A stretch of 63,998 bases of DNA, filler included, from Sandaracinaceae bacterium (GTDB lineage: Bacteria > Myxococcota_A > Polyangia > Polyangiales > JADJQN01), in the NCBI GenBank assembly GCA_947483975.1. It is 11 parts of 11 records of this genome, joined end to end, with 100 filler letters (N's around TTAATTAATTAA, not from the genome) between each part and the next. Parts side by side here need not be neighbours in the genome. Positions count along the whole stretch, not along the records: positions 12,304 to 18,341 come from CANKOL010000318.1; 10 more parts are not named here. One strand, 5' to 3'. Every line of letters starts with the position of its first letter. Position 1 is the first letter of the stretch. Under the pieces are notes generated by a model that ran no database searches, was not told the origin of the DNA, and was given only the letters and a program-made list of their open reading frames with translations. The position numbers and the translations under genes are program-made. Below, one piece after another: positions 6,059 through 24,525 of this stretch.

Positions 6059-6158
6059 NNNNNNNNNNNNNNNNNNNNNNNNNNNNNNNNNNNNNNNNNN
6101 NNTTAATTAATTAANNNNNNNNNNNNNNNNNNNNNNNNNNNNNNNNNNNNNNNNNNNN
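6059..6158. other. Artificial contig linker (first of 10)
   Basis: N-run + TTAATTAATTAA + N-run, 100 nt. Others at 12204-12303, 18342-18441, 24426-24525, 30507-30606, 36584-36683, 42629-42728, 48668-48767, 54697-54796, 60725-60824. Confidence 0.99.
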
Positions 6159-12203: not shown

Positions 12204-12304
12204 NNNNNNNNNNNNNNNNNNNNNNNNNNNNNNNNNNNNNNNNNNNNTTAATTAATTAANNNNNNNNNNNNNNNNNNNNNNNNNNNNNNNNNNNNNNNNN
12301 NNNC

Positions 12305-13000
12305 CCCGCGCTCGAAGGCGCAGCGCGCGCGACGAGCGCCGCGCGGGACAGCGCGGTCGGGCACGCGGCCGCCCGCAACAGCGCGCTCGAACAGCTCCAC
12401 GCCGCTGAAGCGCTGCTCTCTCGGTACGAGCTCGAGCACGCCGAGCTCGAGGCGCGCTACGGCGTCGTCGGCAAGCTCTCGGAGGTCGCCGAGGGCGGGA
12501 ACGCGCACAAGCTCAGCTTTCAGCGCTACGTGCTCGCGACCCTCCTCGACGACGTGCTCCTCACCTCGACGCAGCGCCTCCGCGAGATGAGCCGCGGCCG
12601 CTATGAGCTCCAGCGGCGCGCCGGCACCGAAGGACACGAGCGCAAAGGCGGGCTCGCGCTCGACGTGATGGACCACCACACCGGGGTCGCGCGCCCCGTC
12701 AACACGCTCTCCGGCGGCGAGAGCTTCCTCGCCTCGCTGTGCCTCGCGCTCGGGCTCGCCGACGTGCTGCAGAGCTACGCGGGCGGCGTGCGCCTCGACA
12801 CGATCTTCGTCGACGAGGGCTTCGGCACGCTCGATCAAGAGGTGCTCGACCAGGCGATCGACACGCTGATCGGGCTGCAGGCGGGCGGGCGCCTCGTCGG
12901 CGTCATCTCGCATGTGGAGGAGTTCCGCGCGCGCGTCGACGCGCGGCTCGAGATCCTGTGCGGCGAGCGCGGCTCGACGGCGCGCTTCGTCGTCGGCTGA
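12305..13000 (+). CDS. sbcC: SbcC SMC-family ATPase, C-terminal fragment
   Basis: LSGGE signature, FVDEGFGTLD, GVISHV. Confidence 0.88.
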   Translation, partial: PALEGAARATSAARDSAVGHAAARNSALEQLHAAEALLSRYELEHAELEARYGVVGKLSEVAEGGNAHKLSFQRYVLATLLDDVLLTSTQRLREMSRGRYELQRRAGTEGHERKGGLALDVMDHHTGVARPVNTLSGGESFLASLCLALGLADVLQSYAGGVRLDTIFVDEGFGTLDQEVLDQAIDTLIGLQAGGRLVGVISHVEEFRARVDARLEILCGERGSTARFVVG

Positions 13001-13107: not shown

Positions 13108-13206
13108 ATGGCCAAGGGACAAGAGAAGGTCAAGAAGGACAACAAGCCCAAGCTCAGCACCAAGGAGAAGCAGCAGAAGAAGAAGGAGAAGAAGGCCTCC
13201 AAGTGA
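13108..13206 (+). CDS. 32-aa Lys-rich small protein
   Basis: AAGGAGG RBS upstream; MAKGQEKVKKDNKPKLSTKEKQQKKKEKKASK; Lys codons all AAG. Confidence 0.75.
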   Translation: MAKGQEKVKKDNKPKLSTKEKQQKKKEKKASK

Positions 13207-13338: not shown

Positions 13339-15372
13339 TCAGCGCGGACGCTTGGCAGGCCGCGCCTCAGTCGGCGCAACAGTCCGCGCAGCAGGGCGCC
13401 CAGCAGGGCGCGCATCAGGGCGCGCATCGGTCCGCGCATCAGTCCGCGCAGCAGGGCGCGGTTTGGCACCCGCGGGGCGATTGGTGCCACAGACCTTGCG
13501 CTTGTCGTGGATCGACAGCGAGCCCTTCCCCGTCGCGGGCGGCAGCAAGCAGTGCGGCGCGGTGCCGATCAAGTCGCGGCGCCCCGCGCTGATCAGCGCC
13601 TCGCGCGCGAGGTCGTGGTGCGCGGGGTCCCAATAGAGCAGCAGCGCCTTCTGCCTACGCTTGTCGCGCATCTCGCGCGCCGTGTAGACGGGCTCCGCGG
13701 TGAACGGGTCGAACCCCGTGTAATACATGCTCGTCGCCATCGACATCGGCGTCGGGATGAAGTCCTGCACTTGGCGCGGGCGAACTCCCTGCTTCTTCAG
13801 GTAGAGCGCGAGCTCGATCATCGACTCGAGCGTCGAGCCCGGGTGTCCGCTGATGTAATAGGGGATCAGCTGCTGGTCTTTGCCCGCCTGCGCGCTCGCG
13901 CGGTTGAACATCCCCGCGAAGCGATCGTAGCTCTCGACGCCGGGCTTCTTCATCTTGGCGAGGACGTCCTCGTCGATGTGCTCCGGCGCGACGGATAGCT
14001 GCCCTCCCGTGTGATGGCGGGCGAGCTGCTCGACGAACTCGGGGCTCCGCTCGGCCAGGTCGTAGCGCACGCCGCTCGCGATGAAGACCTTCTTGATCCC
14101 CTTCTCGACGCGCACCTTCTGCAGGAGATCGACGAGCGGCTTGTGATCCGTGACGAGGTTCTCGCAGACGCCCGGGTGCACACACGAGAGTCGCCGACAC
14201 GCCTTCTCGATGCGCTCGTCCTTGCAGTGCATCTGATACATGTTCGCCGTCGGGCCGCCGACGTCGCTGATCACCCCGTGGAAGCCGTCCATGCGCCGCA
14301 ACGAGCGCACCTCGCGGAGCACGCTCTCGGCGGAGCGCGACTGAATCACGCGCCCCTCGTGCTCGGTGATCGAGCAGAACGTGCAGCCTCCGAAACAGCC
14401 GCGCATCGTGACGATGCTGTGCTTCACCGTCTCGTAGGCGGGGATGCGCTCGGCGTAGGACCAGTGGGGGAGTCGCGTGAACGGGAGATCGTAGAGTCCG
14501 TCCATGAACTCGGTCTCGAGGGGCTTCGCGGGCGGGTTGAAATACACCGCCTGCGCGCCGTGCGGTTGCACGAGGGGGCGCCCGTTGCCCGGGTTCGTCT
14601 CGTACTGAAAGACGTGCGACATCTCGCGAAACGCGTCGCGCCCTTCGGGCGTCGCGGGGCTCACCTCTTCGTAGGAGGGCAGAAAGAGCACGTGCCCGTC
14701 GGACACGAAGCGCGAGCGGGGCAGGGACTCCCACTCTCCCTTGTTGCGGATATGCGCCGTGCCGCGGACGTCGCGGAGCGCGCCAATCTTCTCTCCGTTC
14801 GCGAGCCTGTCGGCGATCTCCCAGATGGGCCGCTCGCCCATGCCGAACACCAGCAAATCGGCTTTGGCGTCGAGCAGAATGGCGCGCCGCACTTGCTCGG
14901 ACCAGTAGTCGAAGTGCGCGATTCGGCGGAGCGAAGCCTCGATTCCGCCGAGCACGACGGGCACGCCGGGGAGCGCCTGCCGGACGAGATTGGCATACAC
15001 GATGGACGCGCGATTCGGGCGCATTCCCGTGCTGCCGCCGGGCGAGTACTGGTCTTCACCGCGCGTCTTCTTCTGCGCCGTGAGCTTGTTGAGCATCGAG
15101 TCGAGGTTGCCCGCCGTGATGCCGACGAAGAGGCGCGGCGCGCCGAGGCGGAGCACGTCCTCCGTCGTGTCCCAGCGCGGCTGCGAGATCATGCCGACGC
15201 GGTAGCCGCGCCCCGTGAGAAAGCGCCCGATCAGCGCCGCGCCGAACGCCGGGTGATCGACGTAGGCGTCGCCGTTGATGAGCAAGATGTCGAGCGCGTC
15301 CCAGCCGCGCGCGCGCATCTCCTCGCGGGTCGTCGGCAGAAACGCGTGCAAATCACGCAGAGGCGCGCTCAT
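13339..15372 (-). CDS. YgiQ-family (UPF0313) radical SAM protein
   Basis: GDAYVDHP, GGIEASLRR, CFGGCTFC cluster motif, APEH, QVQDFIPTPM; C-terminal 12-bp repeats (ARTD/ARPD). Confidence 0.93.
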   Translation of the reverse strand: MSAPLRDLHAFLPTTREEMRARGWDALDILLINGDAYVDHPAFGAALIGRFLTGRGYRVGMISQPRWDTTEDVLRLGAPRLFVGITAGNLDSMLNKLTAQKKTRGEDQYSPGGSTGMRPNRASIVYANLVRQALPGVPVVLGGIEASLRRIAHFDYWSEQVRRAILLDAKADLLVFGMGERPIWEIADRLANGEKIGALRDVRGTAHIRNKGEWESLPRSRFVSDGHVLFLPSYEEVSPATPEGRDAFREMSHVFQYETNPGNGRPLVQPHGAQAVYFNPPAKPLETEFMDGLYDLPFTRLPHWSYAERIPAYETVKHSIVTMRGCFGGCTFCSITEHEGRVIQSRSAESVLREVRSLRRMDGFHGVISDVGGPTANMYQMHCKDERIEKACRRLSCVHPGVCENLVTDHKPLVDLLQKVRVEKGIKKVFIASGVRYDLAERSPEFVEQLARHHTGGQLSVAPEHIDEDVLAKMKKPGVESYDRFAGMFNRASAQAGKDQQLIPYYISGHPGSTLESMIELALYLKKQGVRPRQVQDFIPTPMSMATSMYYTGFDPFTAEPVYTAREMRDKRRQKALLLYWDPAHHDLAREALISAGRRDLIGTAPHCLLPPATGKGSLSIHDKRKVCGTNRPAGAKPRPAARTDARTDARPDARPAGRPAARTVAPTEARPAKRPR

Positions 15373-15695
15373 TCGCCGAGCCACTCGCAGCCGCAGCCGG
15401 ACGCGGAGCCCTGACAGGCGTGCATCGACGGGCACGCCATCGTGCTCGACAGACACGGCACCTCAGGGCGGCGCGCGCCGTCGGCGTGCTCGACGCAGCG
15501 CGTCCCGGCGTCGCAGTCGCGGTCCACTCGGCACGTCGCGTCCGCGGCGCCGGTGCAGAGGCAAGTGCTCCCGACGGGCGCTGGCGCGACGACGCCGACG
15601 GCTTCGCTGCCGCTCAGCCCATAGGATTCGTGGCAACTCGGGAGCGCGGCGAGGAGCGGGACGCTCCAGGCGAGAGTCGAAGTAGGGCGCAGCAT
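15369..15695 (-). CDS. Cys-rich putative lipoprotein
   Basis: LAALPSC lipobox-like; 10 further Cys; ATGA overlap with the ygiQ-like gene. Confidence 0.65.
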   Translation of the reverse strand: MLRPTSTLAWSVPLLAALPSCHESYGLSGSEAVGVVAPAPVGSTCLCTGAADATCRVDRDCDAGTRCVEHADGARRPEVPCLSSTMACPSMHACQGSASGCGCEWLGE

Positions 15696-15805
15696 CGCGC
15701 CAGGATGCGCTGTCGCGCGGCAACGCTCAACGCCCCCCGGACGGGCGCCGACGGTGCTAGCGTGCGCGCCCCTCTGCGCGGCCCGCGCCTCGCCTGAACC
15801 GTCGA

Positions 15806-17818
15806 ATGCCCCCTCACTCTCCCTACGCGCGCAAGCCCGGCGCGCTCACGCTCGACGCGCTCGAGCGACGCTTCGAGCAGCTCGCGGGCGACCATCCGCA
15901 CCTCGACGTCACGCGGCTGAAGGACGCGCTCGGCCTCAAGAGCGAGTACCTCGCGGCGCGCATGGTCGCGGGGCTCGACACGAACGGCGACGGCGTCGTC
16001 AGCCGCGACGAGTTCCTCGAGGGCGTCCGCGCGCTCGTCTACGGCACGGACCGCGATCGGCTGAGGTTCGCGTTTCGCCTGCACGATCACGACGGCGACG
16101 GCTTCCTCTCGCTCGACGAGCTCGAGCGGATGATCGACATCGGGCTCGCGGAGGACTCGGTCGAAGAGCACACGACGCAGTCGCCCGAGGTCCTCGCGGC
16201 GGCGCTGTTGCGCGCGGCGGATCGGGACGGGGACGGGCGGGTGTCCTTCGCGGAGCTCGAGCAGCTCGTCAGCGCGCGCCCCGAGCTGCTGCGCGAGATG
16301 GCGCGCGCAGAGGCGCTCTGGATGGCGCCGAACCGCGACCTCCTCGCGCGGCTCTCCGCGCCCTCGAGCGCGCCCGAGGCCGTGCACCCCGCGCGGCGCT
16401 GGCTCGAGAATCACTGGCGCTCGGTCGCGTTCGTGGGGCTCTGCGCGCTCGTCAACGTCGCGCTCTTCGCGAAGGCGCTGCTCGCGTCGCCCGACGCCGG
16501 GCACACCGAGCGCCTGATGCAGCTAGGGCGCGCGACGGGCGCCGCGATGAGCTTCGACGCCGTGCTGCTCCTCGTGCCGGTGATGCGACGGCTGCTGACG
16601 CGCGTGCGCGCGAGCTGGCTCGGGCGGCTGCTGCCCGTGGACGAGGCGGTGGGCTTTCACAAGCTGCTCGGGCACACGCTCGTCGCGCTGACGCTCGCGC
16701 ACGTCGCCGCGTTCGCCATCACCTGGCACGCCGGGCACCCGGCGGGCTCGCTCACGCAGCTGTTCTTCGGGACGCAGCGCGGGCTGACCGGCACCCTGCT
16801 GCTCGCGGTGTTCGCCGTGATTTGGGTCGCTGCGCTCCGCTGGATCCGCCGCACTCAGCACTTCGAGATCTTCTACTTCACGCACTTGCTCTACGCGCCG
16901 TGGATGGTGCTGCTGATCGTGCACGCGCCGCACGTGCTCGCCTGGCTCGGGCTGCCGCTCCTCGGCTTCGGCGTCGAGCGGGTGCTGCGGCTCGTGCGCC
17001 GCGCGCGTCGGAGCGAGCTGCTGAAGCTCGAGCCGCTGCGCTCGCGCGTGACGTTGCTCGAGATCGCGCGCCCCGCGGGCTTCACGTTCTCGGCGACGGA
17101 CTACGTGTTCGTGCGCATCCCCGCGGTGGCCAAGCACGAGTGGCATCCGTTCACGCTCAGCAGCGCGCCCGAGCGCGACACGCTCACGCTGCACGTGCGC
17201 ACGCTCGGCAACTGGACGGCTGCTCTGCGCGCGCTCGCCGACGCGCGACAGGCGGAGCGCGACGACTCGCCGCTCGCCGTCTACGTCGATGGGCCCTACG
17301 GCTCGCCGAGCGCGCACGTCTTCCGGTCGCGCTTCGCGGTGTTCATCGGCGCGGGCATCGGCGTCACGCCGTTCGCGAGCGTGCTCGAGAGCCTCGTCTC
17401 CCGGGCAGAGGGCGACGAGCGCAGCGCGCTCGAGAAGGCGCACTTCTTCTGGCTCAGCCAGGACCTGCGCTCCTTCGAGTGGTTCCGCGACCTGCTCGCG
17501 GAGGTCGAGCGGCGGGATCGGCGCGGCTTGCTCGCGCTGCACCTGCACATGACCGCGGGGCGCACGGGCGCGACGGCGTTCGGGCTGGAGCTCGCGCGGG
17601 AGCTGGCGCACTCGCACGGGCACGGAGACCTCGCGACGGGCTTGCACGCGAAGACTCAGATGAGCGCCCCCGACTGGCGCGCGGAGCTCCGGGCGATCCA
17701 GCGGGCGCACGCGCCGCACGAGGTCGACGTCTACTTCTGCGGGCCGCACGGGCTCGGCGTGAAGCTCCGGCGCCTCTGCGCCGAGCTGAAGCTGTCGTTT
17801 CGCGAGGAGCAGTTCTGA
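15806..17818 (+). CDS. EF-hand NADPH oxidase (NOX5/RBOH-like flavocytochrome)
   Basis: Three EF-hand loops (DTNGDGVVSRDE, DHDGDGFLSLDE, DRDGDGRVSFAE). Six TM with paired His in TM3 (FHK...LAH) and TM5 (FTH...IVH). HPFTLSS (FAD), DGPYG, GAGIGVTPF, CGP, and C-terminal EQF. Confidence 0.92.
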   Translation: MPPHSPYARKPGALTLDALERRFEQLAGDHPHLDVTRLKDALGLKSEYLAARMVAGLDTNGDGVVSRDEFLEGVRALVYGTDRDRLRFAFRLHDHDGDGFLSLDELERMIDIGLAEDSVEEHTTQSPEVLAAALLRAADRDGDGRVSFAELEQLVSARPELLREMARAEALWMAPNRDLLARLSAPSSAPEAVHPARRWLENHWRSVAFVGLCALVNVALFAKALLASPDAGHTERLMQLGRATGAAMSFDAVLLLVPVMRRLLTRVRASWLGRLLPVDEAVGFHKLLGHTLVALTLAHVAAFAITWHAGHPAGSLTQLFFGTQRGLTGTLLLAVFAVIWVAALRWIRRTQHFEIFYFTHLLYAPWMVLLIVHAPHVLAWLGLPLLGFGVERVLRLVRRARRSELLKLEPLRSRVTLLEIARPAGFTFSATDYVFVRIPAVAKHEWHPFTLSSAPERDTLTLHVRTLGNWTAALRALADARQAERDDSPLAVYVDGPYGSPSAHVFRSRFAVFIGAGIGVTPFASVLESLVSRAEGDERSALEKAHFFWLSQDLRSFEWFRDLLAEVERRDRRGLLALHLHMTAGRTGATAFGLELARELAHSHGHGDLATGLHAKTQMSAPDWRAELRAIQRAHAPHEVDVYFCGPHGLGVKLRRLCAELKLSFREEQF

Positions 17819-18341
17819 TGGCGCGAACGGAGCAGTTCGAGCGAGTCGAGCGCGGGAGTCGCCAGCTCCCGAGCGCGCTGTCGAGCGCGGGAGTCTACGC
17901 GAGCCTCTGCGCGGCGTTCCTTTCGCTGAGCGCGTGCTCGGATACGCACGCTGGCGCGGACGTGGACGGCGGCTCGGGGGCGTGCGCGACGTGCCATATG
18001 CCCGAGTATTTGGGCGCGCGGCGCCACGCCGGCGTGAAGCCGACGACGTGCGGTGTGTGCCATTCGCGGGAGCGCTGGACACCGCACATCAAGCAGCACC
18101 GCTGGCCTCTGACTGGCGCGCACGCCGAGGTGGATTGCGTCAAGTGCCACACGGGCGCTGCGCCGAAGTACGAGGACACCGCGAGCGAGTGTGTGGACTG
18201 TCACCTCGACACCTTCGAGCATGAGACGTTCACGGAGCACCTCGGCTATTCGCGCGAGTGCGCCCGCTGCCACACGACGACCGCGTGGCTGCCCGCGACG
18301 TGGAACGGCCGCGCGATCGACCCCGCCGAGCACGCCGCGCG
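17818..18341 (+). CDS. Multiheme cytochrome c lipoprotein (at least 5 hemes; 3' truncated)
   Basis: TGATG overlap with the NOX stop; LSLSAC lipobox; CATCH, CGVCH, CVKCH, CVDCH, CARCH; WPLTGAH motif. Confidence 0.85.
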
Positions 18342-18441
18342 NNNNNNNNNNNNNNNNNNNNNNNNNNNNNNNNNNNNNNNNNNNNTTAATTAATTAANNN
18401 NNNNNNNNNNNNNNNNNNNNNNNNNNNNNNNNNNNNNNNNN

Positions 18442-24425: not shown

Positions 24426-24525
24426 NNNNNNNNNNNNNNNNNNNNNNNNNNNNNNNNNNNNNNNNNNNNTTAATTAATTAANNNNNNNNNNNNNNNNNNN
24501 NNNNNNNNNNNNNNNNNNNNNNNNN

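Follow-up and report, generated by a model that had tools for sequence, protein, structure and literature searches.

Introduction

NADPH oxidases of the NOX5 type, described from humans and from Cylindrospermum stagnale (csNOX5), share one domain order: EF-hands, a six-helix domain with two haems, a domain binding flavin adenine dinucleotide (FAD) and a domain binding NADPH. Here we analyze a gene with this architecture, and the multihaem cytochrome c gene that overlaps its stop codon, in a stretch of 63,998 nucleotides (hereafter the window) from the draft genome of a Sandaracinaceae bacterium (GCA_947483975.1). The pair recurs in many relatives, in each case with a NOX that has lost the histidine of the proposed O2 pocket, and we suggest that it may form a Ca2+-gated electron exporter.

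Arg256, His317 and His313, a haem ligand, line the proposed O2 cavity of csNOX5, and two substitutions there (R256S and H317R) are reported to slow the enzyme at least 5-fold (PMC8129163, our source for the O2 centre of Magnani et al. 2017). According to excerpts of another report, the described NOX oxygen centres all use two histidines, an arginine and a haem propionate (PMC11564096). His-119 of NOX2, at the position of csNOX5 His317, is one of four positions reported to separate NOX enzymes that make reactive oxygen species (ROS) from metalloreductases (PMC3591440). We refer to these positions as the ROS-NOX signature of Zhang et al. 2013. SpNOX, from Streptococcus pneumoniae, is described as having no O2 centre and as reducing cytochrome c directly under anaerobic conditions, and three groups have proposed protein acceptors for it and for bacterial NOX enzymes (PMC5676040, PMC11031084, PMC11564096). 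The solved NOX of the cyanobacterial clade is described as giving free access to the distal haem (PMC11031084).

The NOX of the window resembles NOX5 in its domain order, four haem histidines, pocket arginine, Thr-Gly dipeptide and short outer loops. It differs in having Phe for the O2-pocket His, in the loss of Asn306, in a new Gly-His pair in loop C, and in the cytochrome c gene overlapping its stop codon, a partner seen at none of the 17 cyanobacterial loci surveyed. SpNOX is likewise a bacterial NOX without the canonical O2 centre, described with an exposed outer haem and direct cytochrome c reduction in vitro. Unlike the window NOX, it has no EF-hands, and the excerpts of the SpNOX papers name no partner gene, whereas the window cassette encodes a candidate acceptor.

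Two further systems hand electrons to acceptors other than O2. In MsrQ-MsrP (YedZ-YedY), a ferric-reductase-domain membrane protein is reported to hand outer-haem electrons to a periplasmic partner (PMC11031084, PMC11564096). MsrQ differs in taking its electrons from the quinone pool without a fused NAD(P)H dehydrogenase domain (PMC11564096), in having Arg for the first haem His (PMC3591440), and in having a molybdoenzyme rather than a cytochrome c as its partner. We rejected membership of the MsrQ/YedZ family, as the window NOX has all four histidines and a full fused dehydrogenase domain. Metalloreductases of the FRE/STEAP type also drive transmembrane export with NAD(P)H to a non-O2 acceptor and are described as having no equivalent of His-119 (PMC3591440). 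The window NOX, in contrast, falls inside the NOX5-like clade and keeps the Thr-Gly dipeptide and the EF-hands, and its proposed acceptor is a protein.

Results

A NOX5-type gene overlapping a cytochrome c gene

The initial annotation had described a complete NOX with three EF-hands, six transmembrane (TM) helices, four haem histidines, and FAD and NADPH domains. Pfam, phmmer and alignments all bear this out. Pfam matches above the cut-off are EF-hand_7/1/6/5/8 (residues 34-155), Ferric_reduct (263-370; 45.3 bits, cut-off 28), FAD_binding_8 (406-502; 67.7 bits) and NAD_binding_6 (512-659; 73.2 bits). The phmmer search against the PDB returned human NOX5 chains (E 1.9e-101), the dehydrogenase domain of csNOX5 (5o0x; 1.3e-70) and its TM domain (4.8e-35). 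The marks of a NOX5-type enzyme are all present, namely EF-hands, two pairs of haem ligands and an FAD/NADPH dehydrogenase domain. The three EF loops are canonical 12-residue loops with the Asp/Asn/Gly/Glu pattern. Their Ca-ligand positions 1, 5, 6 and 12 are conserved in 88-98% of the 40 members of the clade described below, and position 3 in 95% (loop 2), 78% (loop 3) and 55% (loop 1, Asn). H285 and H360 bind the inner haem, and H299 and H373 the outer haem, with spacings of 14 residues in TM3 (H285/H299) and 13 in TM5 (H360/H373). All four are invariant in sets of 9, 37 and 119 relatives. In the alignments, the C-terminus of the NOX is an invariant Phe670. Based on homology with NOX5, the EF-hands and the dehydrogenase domain are predicted to be cytoplasmic, and the outer haem, residue 303 and loop C periplasmic.

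The stop codon of the NOX gene had been noted as overlapping the ATG of the next gene. The overlap exists and spans one base, with the ATG at 17818-17820 (TGATG), rather than the four bases of an ATGA arrangement. A Shine-Dalgarno-like hexamer lies inside the NOX coding sequence, 8 nucleotides (nt) before this ATG, and is a putative ribosome-binding site for the cytochrome gene. The end that had been assigned to the cytochrome gene, 18341, is the end of the contig, and the gene is therefore incomplete. A search of the assembly with the truncated gene as query found no continuation.

The cytochrome is a five-haem lipoprotein in the part seen

The initial annotation's lipoprotein with at least five CxxCH motifs was confirmed: the truncated open reading frame (ORF) has a lipobox and five CxxCH. 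The lipoprotein call is a reading of the lipobox motif ([LVI][ASTVI][GAS]C). All 15 Cys and His residues of the five motifs are invariant in 31 aligned sequences, as are the free histidines H94 and H102, and H70 is conserved in at least 90% of them. The protein matches Pfam Cytochrome_C7 (PF14522) at 41.1 bits (cut-off 24.8), with the multiple haems and free histidines expected of this type. Like cytochromes of the c7/c3 type, such as Geobacter PpcA, it has short, dense CxxCH modules and conserved free histidines; unlike them, it has five haems and a lipid anchor, and its relatives have a Pro/Thr-rich tail. PpcA is a periplasmic electron carrier.

The 31 homologues share a layout of the lipobox Cys, ~15-35 variable residues and a five-haem module of ~100 residues. 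In complete homologues, a Pro/Thr-rich linker of ~60-100 residues follows and leads to a short conserved C-terminal motif. Five-haem forms end in approximately P-D-V-x-T-G-A-S-R-R. Of 36 complete genes, 8 encode a second module with three more haems and end in G-T-R-S-R-R. Such a conserved terminal peptide, held on a flexible linker, may serve in docking or sorting. The closest complete relative of the window cytochrome (L025) has a Thr-rich tail, and low complexity of this sort could plausibly explain why the assembly stops at 18341. Lys is absent from position +2 after the lipid-bearing Cys in all 31 aligned lipoproteins. Lys at +2 is an inner-membrane retention signal in Myxococcus.

Structural comparison added little. 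An AlphaFold2 model of the cytochrome, built from the 31-row alignment, had a mean predicted local distance difference test (pLDDT) score of 55.7 and a predicted template modelling (pTM) score of 0.32, too poor for fold comparison. A profile search of solved structures with the cytochrome alignment gave NrfH as its best match (E 1.4e-4), at motif level only and beside several zinc-finger matches. Complex prediction for NOX residues 190-405 with the mature cytochrome (41-174) scored 0.00 against a mark of 0.32, in a run without controls, and speaks neither for nor against a complex.

The same haem module also occurs in multi-cytochrome clusters without NOX linkage in related genomes, whereas the NOX-linked copy is the only one found in the window's own genome, which is 81% complete. 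Profile searches place the NOX-linked cytochromes in the top-scoring subgroup: all eight matches of at least 174 bits in other genomes are NOX-linked, and one NOX-linked cytochrome scores lower (G018, 145 bits). Clusters of large repeat-module cytochromes, which are candidate downstream electron carriers, lie at G002:C3:1524533-1530168, G016:C10:1381566-1388228, G024:C2:191936-197730 and G048:C4:388319-394197. Genes for cytochrome c assembly are present in the window's genome.

NOX and cytochrome form a conserved two-gene cassette

To assess how far the pair is conserved, we carried out two surveys, which are not independent because some contigs are common to both. The first covered 61 genomes from the order of the window organism, its own among them, with a NOX threshold of E <= 1e-20. 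NOX was present in 12 of them. The three genomes assigned to its own genus or family, which are 90-94% complete, had no match to the query. Nine of the other genomes have a NOX of at least 51% identity. Based on tblastn, a homologous cytochrome lies immediately 3' of the NOX gene in 8 of these, and is absent beside three NOX paralogues of 34-40% identity.

The second survey took one genome per species and examined the best 80 of 289 relatives' loci. Most come from Myxococcota metagenome-assembled genomes (MAGs), with titles naming Polyangiales, Polyangiaceae, Sandaracinaceae and Labilithrix. There are also 17 cyanobacterial loci and a five-locus sister group (three Spirochaetota and two titled only 'bacterium'). 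At 39 of the 80 loci, a 5- or 8-haem cytochrome follows on the same strand, with 84-168 nt between the NOX stop and its first CxxCH; contig ends truncate two of these 39. Another 39 loci have no cytochrome, and the last 2 end inside the NOX gene and were dropped. With the window included, the cytochrome starts -4 to +5 nt from the NOX stop in 31 of 40 loci (starts were assigned heuristically), and 17 of the 40 have the identical one-base overlap. The 9 starts outside this range are probably over-extended.

We also collected 14 metagenome loci, of which seven are informative, with the NOX 3' end and 600 nt or more beyond it. The cytochrome is present in five of them, all with Phe303 and the Gly-His pair described below; the other two have neither this signature nor the cytochrome. 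The initial annotation had named a survey of neighbouring CxxCH proteins as the way to learn whether the adjacency is peculiar to this genome. It is not: between the 39 species genomes and the five metagenome contigs, the cytochrome is a recurrent 3' neighbour, and all linked NOX belong to one clade.

We ran Pfam on 100 ORFs that flank the pair at 25 of the 39 paired loci, and on 15 ORFs from four unpaired loci, and no third conserved gene emerged. The gene 3' of the cytochrome is often on the opposite strand. Because the flanking genes are not conserved, we consider the conserved unit to be a two-gene cassette. Among the best 120 of 429 relatives (all 646-775 amino acids, none with a cytochrome Pfam family) we found no fused NOX-cytochrome protein.

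Some loci depart from the common form. Two near-identical metagenome contigs, L108 (4932-5306) and L109, carry a NOX-linked lipoprotein with only two CxxCH. Its haem motif 2 is joined directly to the sequence that normally follows haem 5, so that it looks like an internal-deletion derivative, still beside NOX. Three NOX genes in related genomes look interrupted, at G038:C2:166338-168312 and G004:C4:536860-538918 (each split into two frames) and at G042:C16:31407-32864 (one in-frame TAA). They are possibly pseudogenes or assembly errors.

Linked NOX have a remodelled acceptor site

We compared the acceptor site across 79 usable NOX sequences. The csNOX5 numbering was reproduced through the Cylindrospermum locus in the alignment, with a constant offset of 24. 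The histidine that ROS-NOX enzymes have four residues after the outer-haem ligand of TM3 is Phe303 in the window NOX. The pocket Arg and the Thr-178/Gly-179 dipeptide of the same signature are present (Arg242 and Thr328-Gly329). Residue 303 is not His in any of the 40 cytochrome-linked NOX (F 27, L 6, I 3, Y 2, V 1, T 1), and the 36 NOX with His303 are all without cytochrome. Gly310-His311 is found in 40 of 40 linked NOX, and His311 in none of the 36 His-type NOX. In a further 119 database relatives (52-77% identity), His303 never occurs and His311 occurs in all 119.

Eighteen alignment columns separate linked from His-type NOX. Ten of them are at the outer-haem (periplasmic) face: 228, 241, 243, 303, 306, 310, 311, 325, 371 and 374. 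They include the two residues flanking the pocket Arg (241 and 243), two next to the outer TM5 ligand (371 and 374), and Asn306 of the canonical HxxxHxxN motif, which the linked NOX have lost. There is no difference in loop length between the clades, the extracytoplasmic loops being equal in length to those of the cyanobacterial clade.

A few loci have neither His303 nor the cytochrome. Residue 303 is Arg in L054, L055 and G004, Ala in L096 and Thr in L110. L054 and L055 have also lost the pocket Arg242, which is Gly or Asp there. The Arg303 lineage (L054, L055 and G004) is a sister of the linked clade, and here the pocket has been remodelled in another way and no cytochrome is present. At L096 (L096:3290-4195), an ApbE-family flavin transferase gene lies ~470 nt downstream of the NOX, a possible sign that this lineage uses another periplasmic acceptor, one that is flavinylated. 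One apparent further case was rejected: tblastn read Val at position 303 of L112, and inspection shows the canonical His (H-A-V-G-H ... W-N-F), so that L112 is a His-type NOX. At L045, a His-type NOX (51% identical) without a downstream cytochrome has a divergent gene beside it for an 811-amino-acid MtrC/MtrF-like cytochrome with 10 CxxCH (L045:2525-4957, minus strand), and another ORF, with 9 CxxCH, lies upstream.

The linked NOX form one clade

We inferred a maximum-likelihood tree of 79 NOX rows (IQ-TREE quick search, LG+G4). The 40 cytochrome-linked NOX, all from Myxococcota, are one side of a branch with a Shimodaira-Hasegawa-like approximate likelihood ratio test (SH-aLRT) support of 96. 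The 43 non-His NOX, which include these 40, are one side of a branch with a support of 99. Both groups are nested among His-type Myxococcota NOX, with the cyanobacteria and spirochaetes on the other side. The tree places the linked NOX in a single clade inside the NOX5-like group. Sister lineages with neither the His nor the cytochrome suggest that the loss of the His preceded the cytochrome, or survived its loss. As this large clade diversified, to ~50% pairwise identity, its members retained both the altered pocket and the cassette, while the surroundings changed.

Occurrence and naming

Relatives of the window NOX fall into 429 database clusters (E <= 1e-30), and the family is common in soil and freshwater Myxococcota MAGs. 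Database names are generic, for instance 'EF-hand domain-containing protein', 'predicted ferric reductase' and 'NADPH oxidase 5'. DNA near-identical to 15400-18341 occurs in 10 lake-water or freshwater metagenome runs from four studies (at least half of the sampled words); two of these runs may be the source sample. Among the sequencing runs listed as matching this DNA there is no RNA run. Full-text literature searches returned neither a NOX-multihaem cytochrome gene pair nor a clade with the His-to-Phe change, in agreement with the initial annotation, which knew of no such operon.

Contig and neighbouring genes

The window consists of ~6-kb MAG contigs strung together by N44-TTAATTAATTAA-N44 spacers. 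The source draft genome has 5.29 Mb in 524 contigs. Spacers lie at 6059-6158, 12204-12303, 18342-18441, 24426-24525 and six more sites, and any feature that crosses one is an artefact. The features of the contig with the NOX-cytochrome pair are collected in Table 1. The NOX gene and the YgiQ-family gene are divergent, with 349 nt between them. A possible 32-amino-acid, very Lys-rich ORF (MAKGQEKVKKDNKPK...) lies between sbcC and YgiQ at 13108-13206 (plus strand), observed solely as the end of a longer, mechanically called ORF.

Table 1. Annotated features of the contig that carries the gene pair (positions along the window)
Feature	Position	Strand	Basis or remark
Contig G000:C318	12304..18341	.	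6038 bases; carries the NOX-cytochrome pair; both ends are assembly breaks, at spacers 12204-12303 and 18342-18441
sbcC, 3' end	12530..13000	+	Same contig as NOX
YgiQ-family radical SAM gene	13339..15456	-	Same contig as NOX
NOX5-type gene, 670 amino acids (P0001)	15806..17818	+	Stop TGA 17816-17818; ORF call, Pfam, phmmer
EF-hand loop 1, residues 58-69 (DTNGDGVVSRDE)	15977..16012	+	Pfam EF-hand
EF-hand loop 2, residues 94-105 (DHDGDGFLSLDE)	16085..16120	+	Pfam EF-hand
EF-hand loop 3, residues 139-150 (DRDGDGRVSFAE)	16220..16255	+	Pfam EF-hand
Six-helix ferric-reductase (haem b) domain, residues ~200-400	16403..17005	+	Pfam Ferric_reduct; four haem His
Arg242, equivalent of csNOX5 Arg256 (O2-pocket Arg), retained	16529..16531	+	Alignment
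Phe303 at the O2-pocket His position (csNOX5 His317, NOX2 His-119)	16712..16714	+	phmmer alignment, opposite human NOX5 His
Gly310-His311, loop C, clade-specific invariant pair	16733..16738	+	Alignment
FAD-binding domain, residues 406-502, with HPFT	17021..17311	+	Pfam FAD_binding_8
NAD(P)H-binding domain, residues 512-659, GAGIGVTPF	17339..17782	+	Pfam NAD_binding_6
GAGGAG, Shine-Dalgarno-like hexamer	17804..17809	+	Inside NOX coding sequence; putative function
Multihaem cytochrome c lipoprotein gene, 5' part only, 174 amino acids (P0002)	17818..18341	+	ORF call, Pfam, alignment
Signal peptide and lipobox L-S-A-C (Cys40)	17818..17937	+	Sequence reading; Cys in at least 90% of 31 aligned homologues
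Five-haem module	17983..18273	+	CxxCH at residues 56-60, 78-82, 107-111, 125-129, 148-152

Discussion

Judging from sequence comparison, we consider it somewhat more probable than the opposite that the two-gene cassette is a Ca2+-gated NAD(P)H:cytochrome c transmembrane electron exporter. Cytoplasmic NAD(P)H would reduce the FAD in the C-terminal dehydrogenase domain, and electrons would pass one at a time from the inner to the outer b haem of the six-helix domain. At the periplasmic face, the outer haem would then reduce the lipoprotein cytochrome c, presumably translated together with the NOX, and O2 would receive fewer electrons or none. Once exported by Sec and anchored by its lipid, the cytochrome should be within reach of the outer haem, residue 303 and loop C. 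A rise in cytoplasmic Ca2+ would switch the flow on through the three EF-hands, as in NOX5, and the reduced cytochrome would supply a periplasmic or surface acceptor encoded outside the cassette. Direct transfer from haem b to haem c, the gating by Ca2+, the direction of flow and the final acceptor are what we infer here. Reverse flow from the cytochrome to NADP+ was rejected on thermodynamic grounds.

The initial annotation had offered two roles for the cytochrome, electron export and the scavenging of superoxide. The sequence evidence favours hand-over of electrons to the cytochrome, because in the linked clade the O2-pocket His is gone and the outer-haem face has been remodelled. In the other role, NOX would be a Ca2+-activated generator of superoxide and the cytochrome would act downstream, oxidizing superoxide to O2 (for protection or to recapture electrons) or sensing it. 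Reduction of cytochrome c by superoxide is reported as a standard NOX assay (PMC5676040), SpNOX is reported to show O2-dependent turnover without the canonical pocket (PMC11564096), and Arg242 and Thr328-Gly329 are retained in the window NOX. The organism's DNA is found in lake-water and freshwater metagenome runs. Lake and fresh water of this source type is assumed to be oxygenated. This explanation stays alive because the Arg and the Thr-Gly are kept, His311 is new, and the effect of H317R in csNOX5 is only partial. However, a scavenger role leaves unexplained why the pocket His and Asn306 were lost, and the outer-haem face remodelled, in exactly the clade with the cytochrome. The 36 His-type NOX, presumably better makers of superoxide, have no such partner, and bacteria normally use a periplasmic superoxide dismutase. 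We regard this role as unlikely, while giving it more weight than the two explanations that follow.

The cytochrome could also be a relay that shifts the reduction of O2 or metal outward from the inner membrane. In that case the pair would generate ROS, or act as an assimilatory ferric reductase, close to the cell surface or outer membrane. The missing equivalent of His-119 is a published mark of metalloreductase-type ferric-reductase-domain proteins (PMC3591440), complete homologues have the 60-100-residue Pro/Thr-rich linker and the conserved C-terminal motif, and the 31 aligned lipoproteins have no Lys at +2. The scans of flanking ORFs nevertheless found no outer-membrane conduit, siderophore or metal-uptake genes conserved beside the pair, and a relay is a special case of the proposed exporter that differs only in its final acceptor. 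We consider it improbable as a separate explanation. Conserved synteny without functional coupling, with the cytochrome serving a general periplasmic pool and NOX acting alone, would fit the presence of the same haem module in NOX-unlinked clusters (e.g. G002:C3, G016:C10, G024:C2 and G048:C4) and the apparent interruption of three NOX genes adjacent or related to the pair. Yet the pair is kept while all flanking genes differ, at most loci the two genes adjoin or share a few bases, and the NOX-linked cytochromes are the top-scoring profile subgroup. Moreover, a non-His residue 303 with Gly310-His311 coincides one-to-one with a linked cytochrome. This last explanation seems to us very improbable.

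Several observations weigh against the export of electrons to the cytochrome. Each of the two traits maps to one branch of the tree, so that the perfect correlation between His loss and cytochrome amounts to a single evolutionary event. Loci L054, L055, L096, G004 and metagenome locus L110 lack both His303 and the cytochrome, and loss of the His is therefore apparently not sufficient for the partner. The linked NOX keep much of the O2 pocket (the Arg in 36 of 40, the Thr-Gly in 38 of 40), and the new invariant His311 nearby could rebuild an O2 site. Reduction of O2 may still occur, because H317R only slows csNOX5 and SpNOX reduces O2 without a canonical pocket. The Pfam scans of flanking ORFs found no downstream acceptor gene beside the pair. 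Lastly, the window's own cytochrome is incomplete; the part seen has five haems, and complete relatives have 5 or 8.

What is new here is that the linked NOX have all replaced the O2-pocket His, mostly with Phe, and have gained an invariant Gly-His. The components belong to known families and the logic has precedents. It is possible, though in our estimate somewhat short of an even chance, that the linked clade provides the first natural example in the NOX family of a protein dedicated to accepting the enzyme's electrons. A NOX5-type oxidase would then have reverted from O2 to a multihaem lipoprotein, with His311 and the C-terminal motif of the cytochrome as docking elements, and bacteria would gain a Ca2+-switched, NADPH-fuelled way to send electrons to the periplasm or cell surface.

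What bacterial NOX enzymes reduce is an open question to which the pair is relevant. The structural papers on SpNOX conclude that O2 is perhaps not the real acceptor and that a protein partner may exist (PMC5676040, PMC11031084, PMC11564096). The cassette offers a concrete candidate for such a partner, overlapping the NOX gene by one base, and the signature of non-His303 with Gly310-His311 predicts the presence of the partner in every locus examined. Hand-over of electrons thus becomes a two-protein question that can be tested directly, of interest to the fields of NOX enzymes and of extracellular electron transfer. Periplasmic cytochrome networks are usually fed from the quinone pool. If electron hand-over to the cytochrome is correct, the cassette would add a Ca2+-regulated, NADPH-driven entry point to these networks, would show how evolution can switch off the O2 specificity of a NOX, and would give a function to a family so far annotated only in generic terms.

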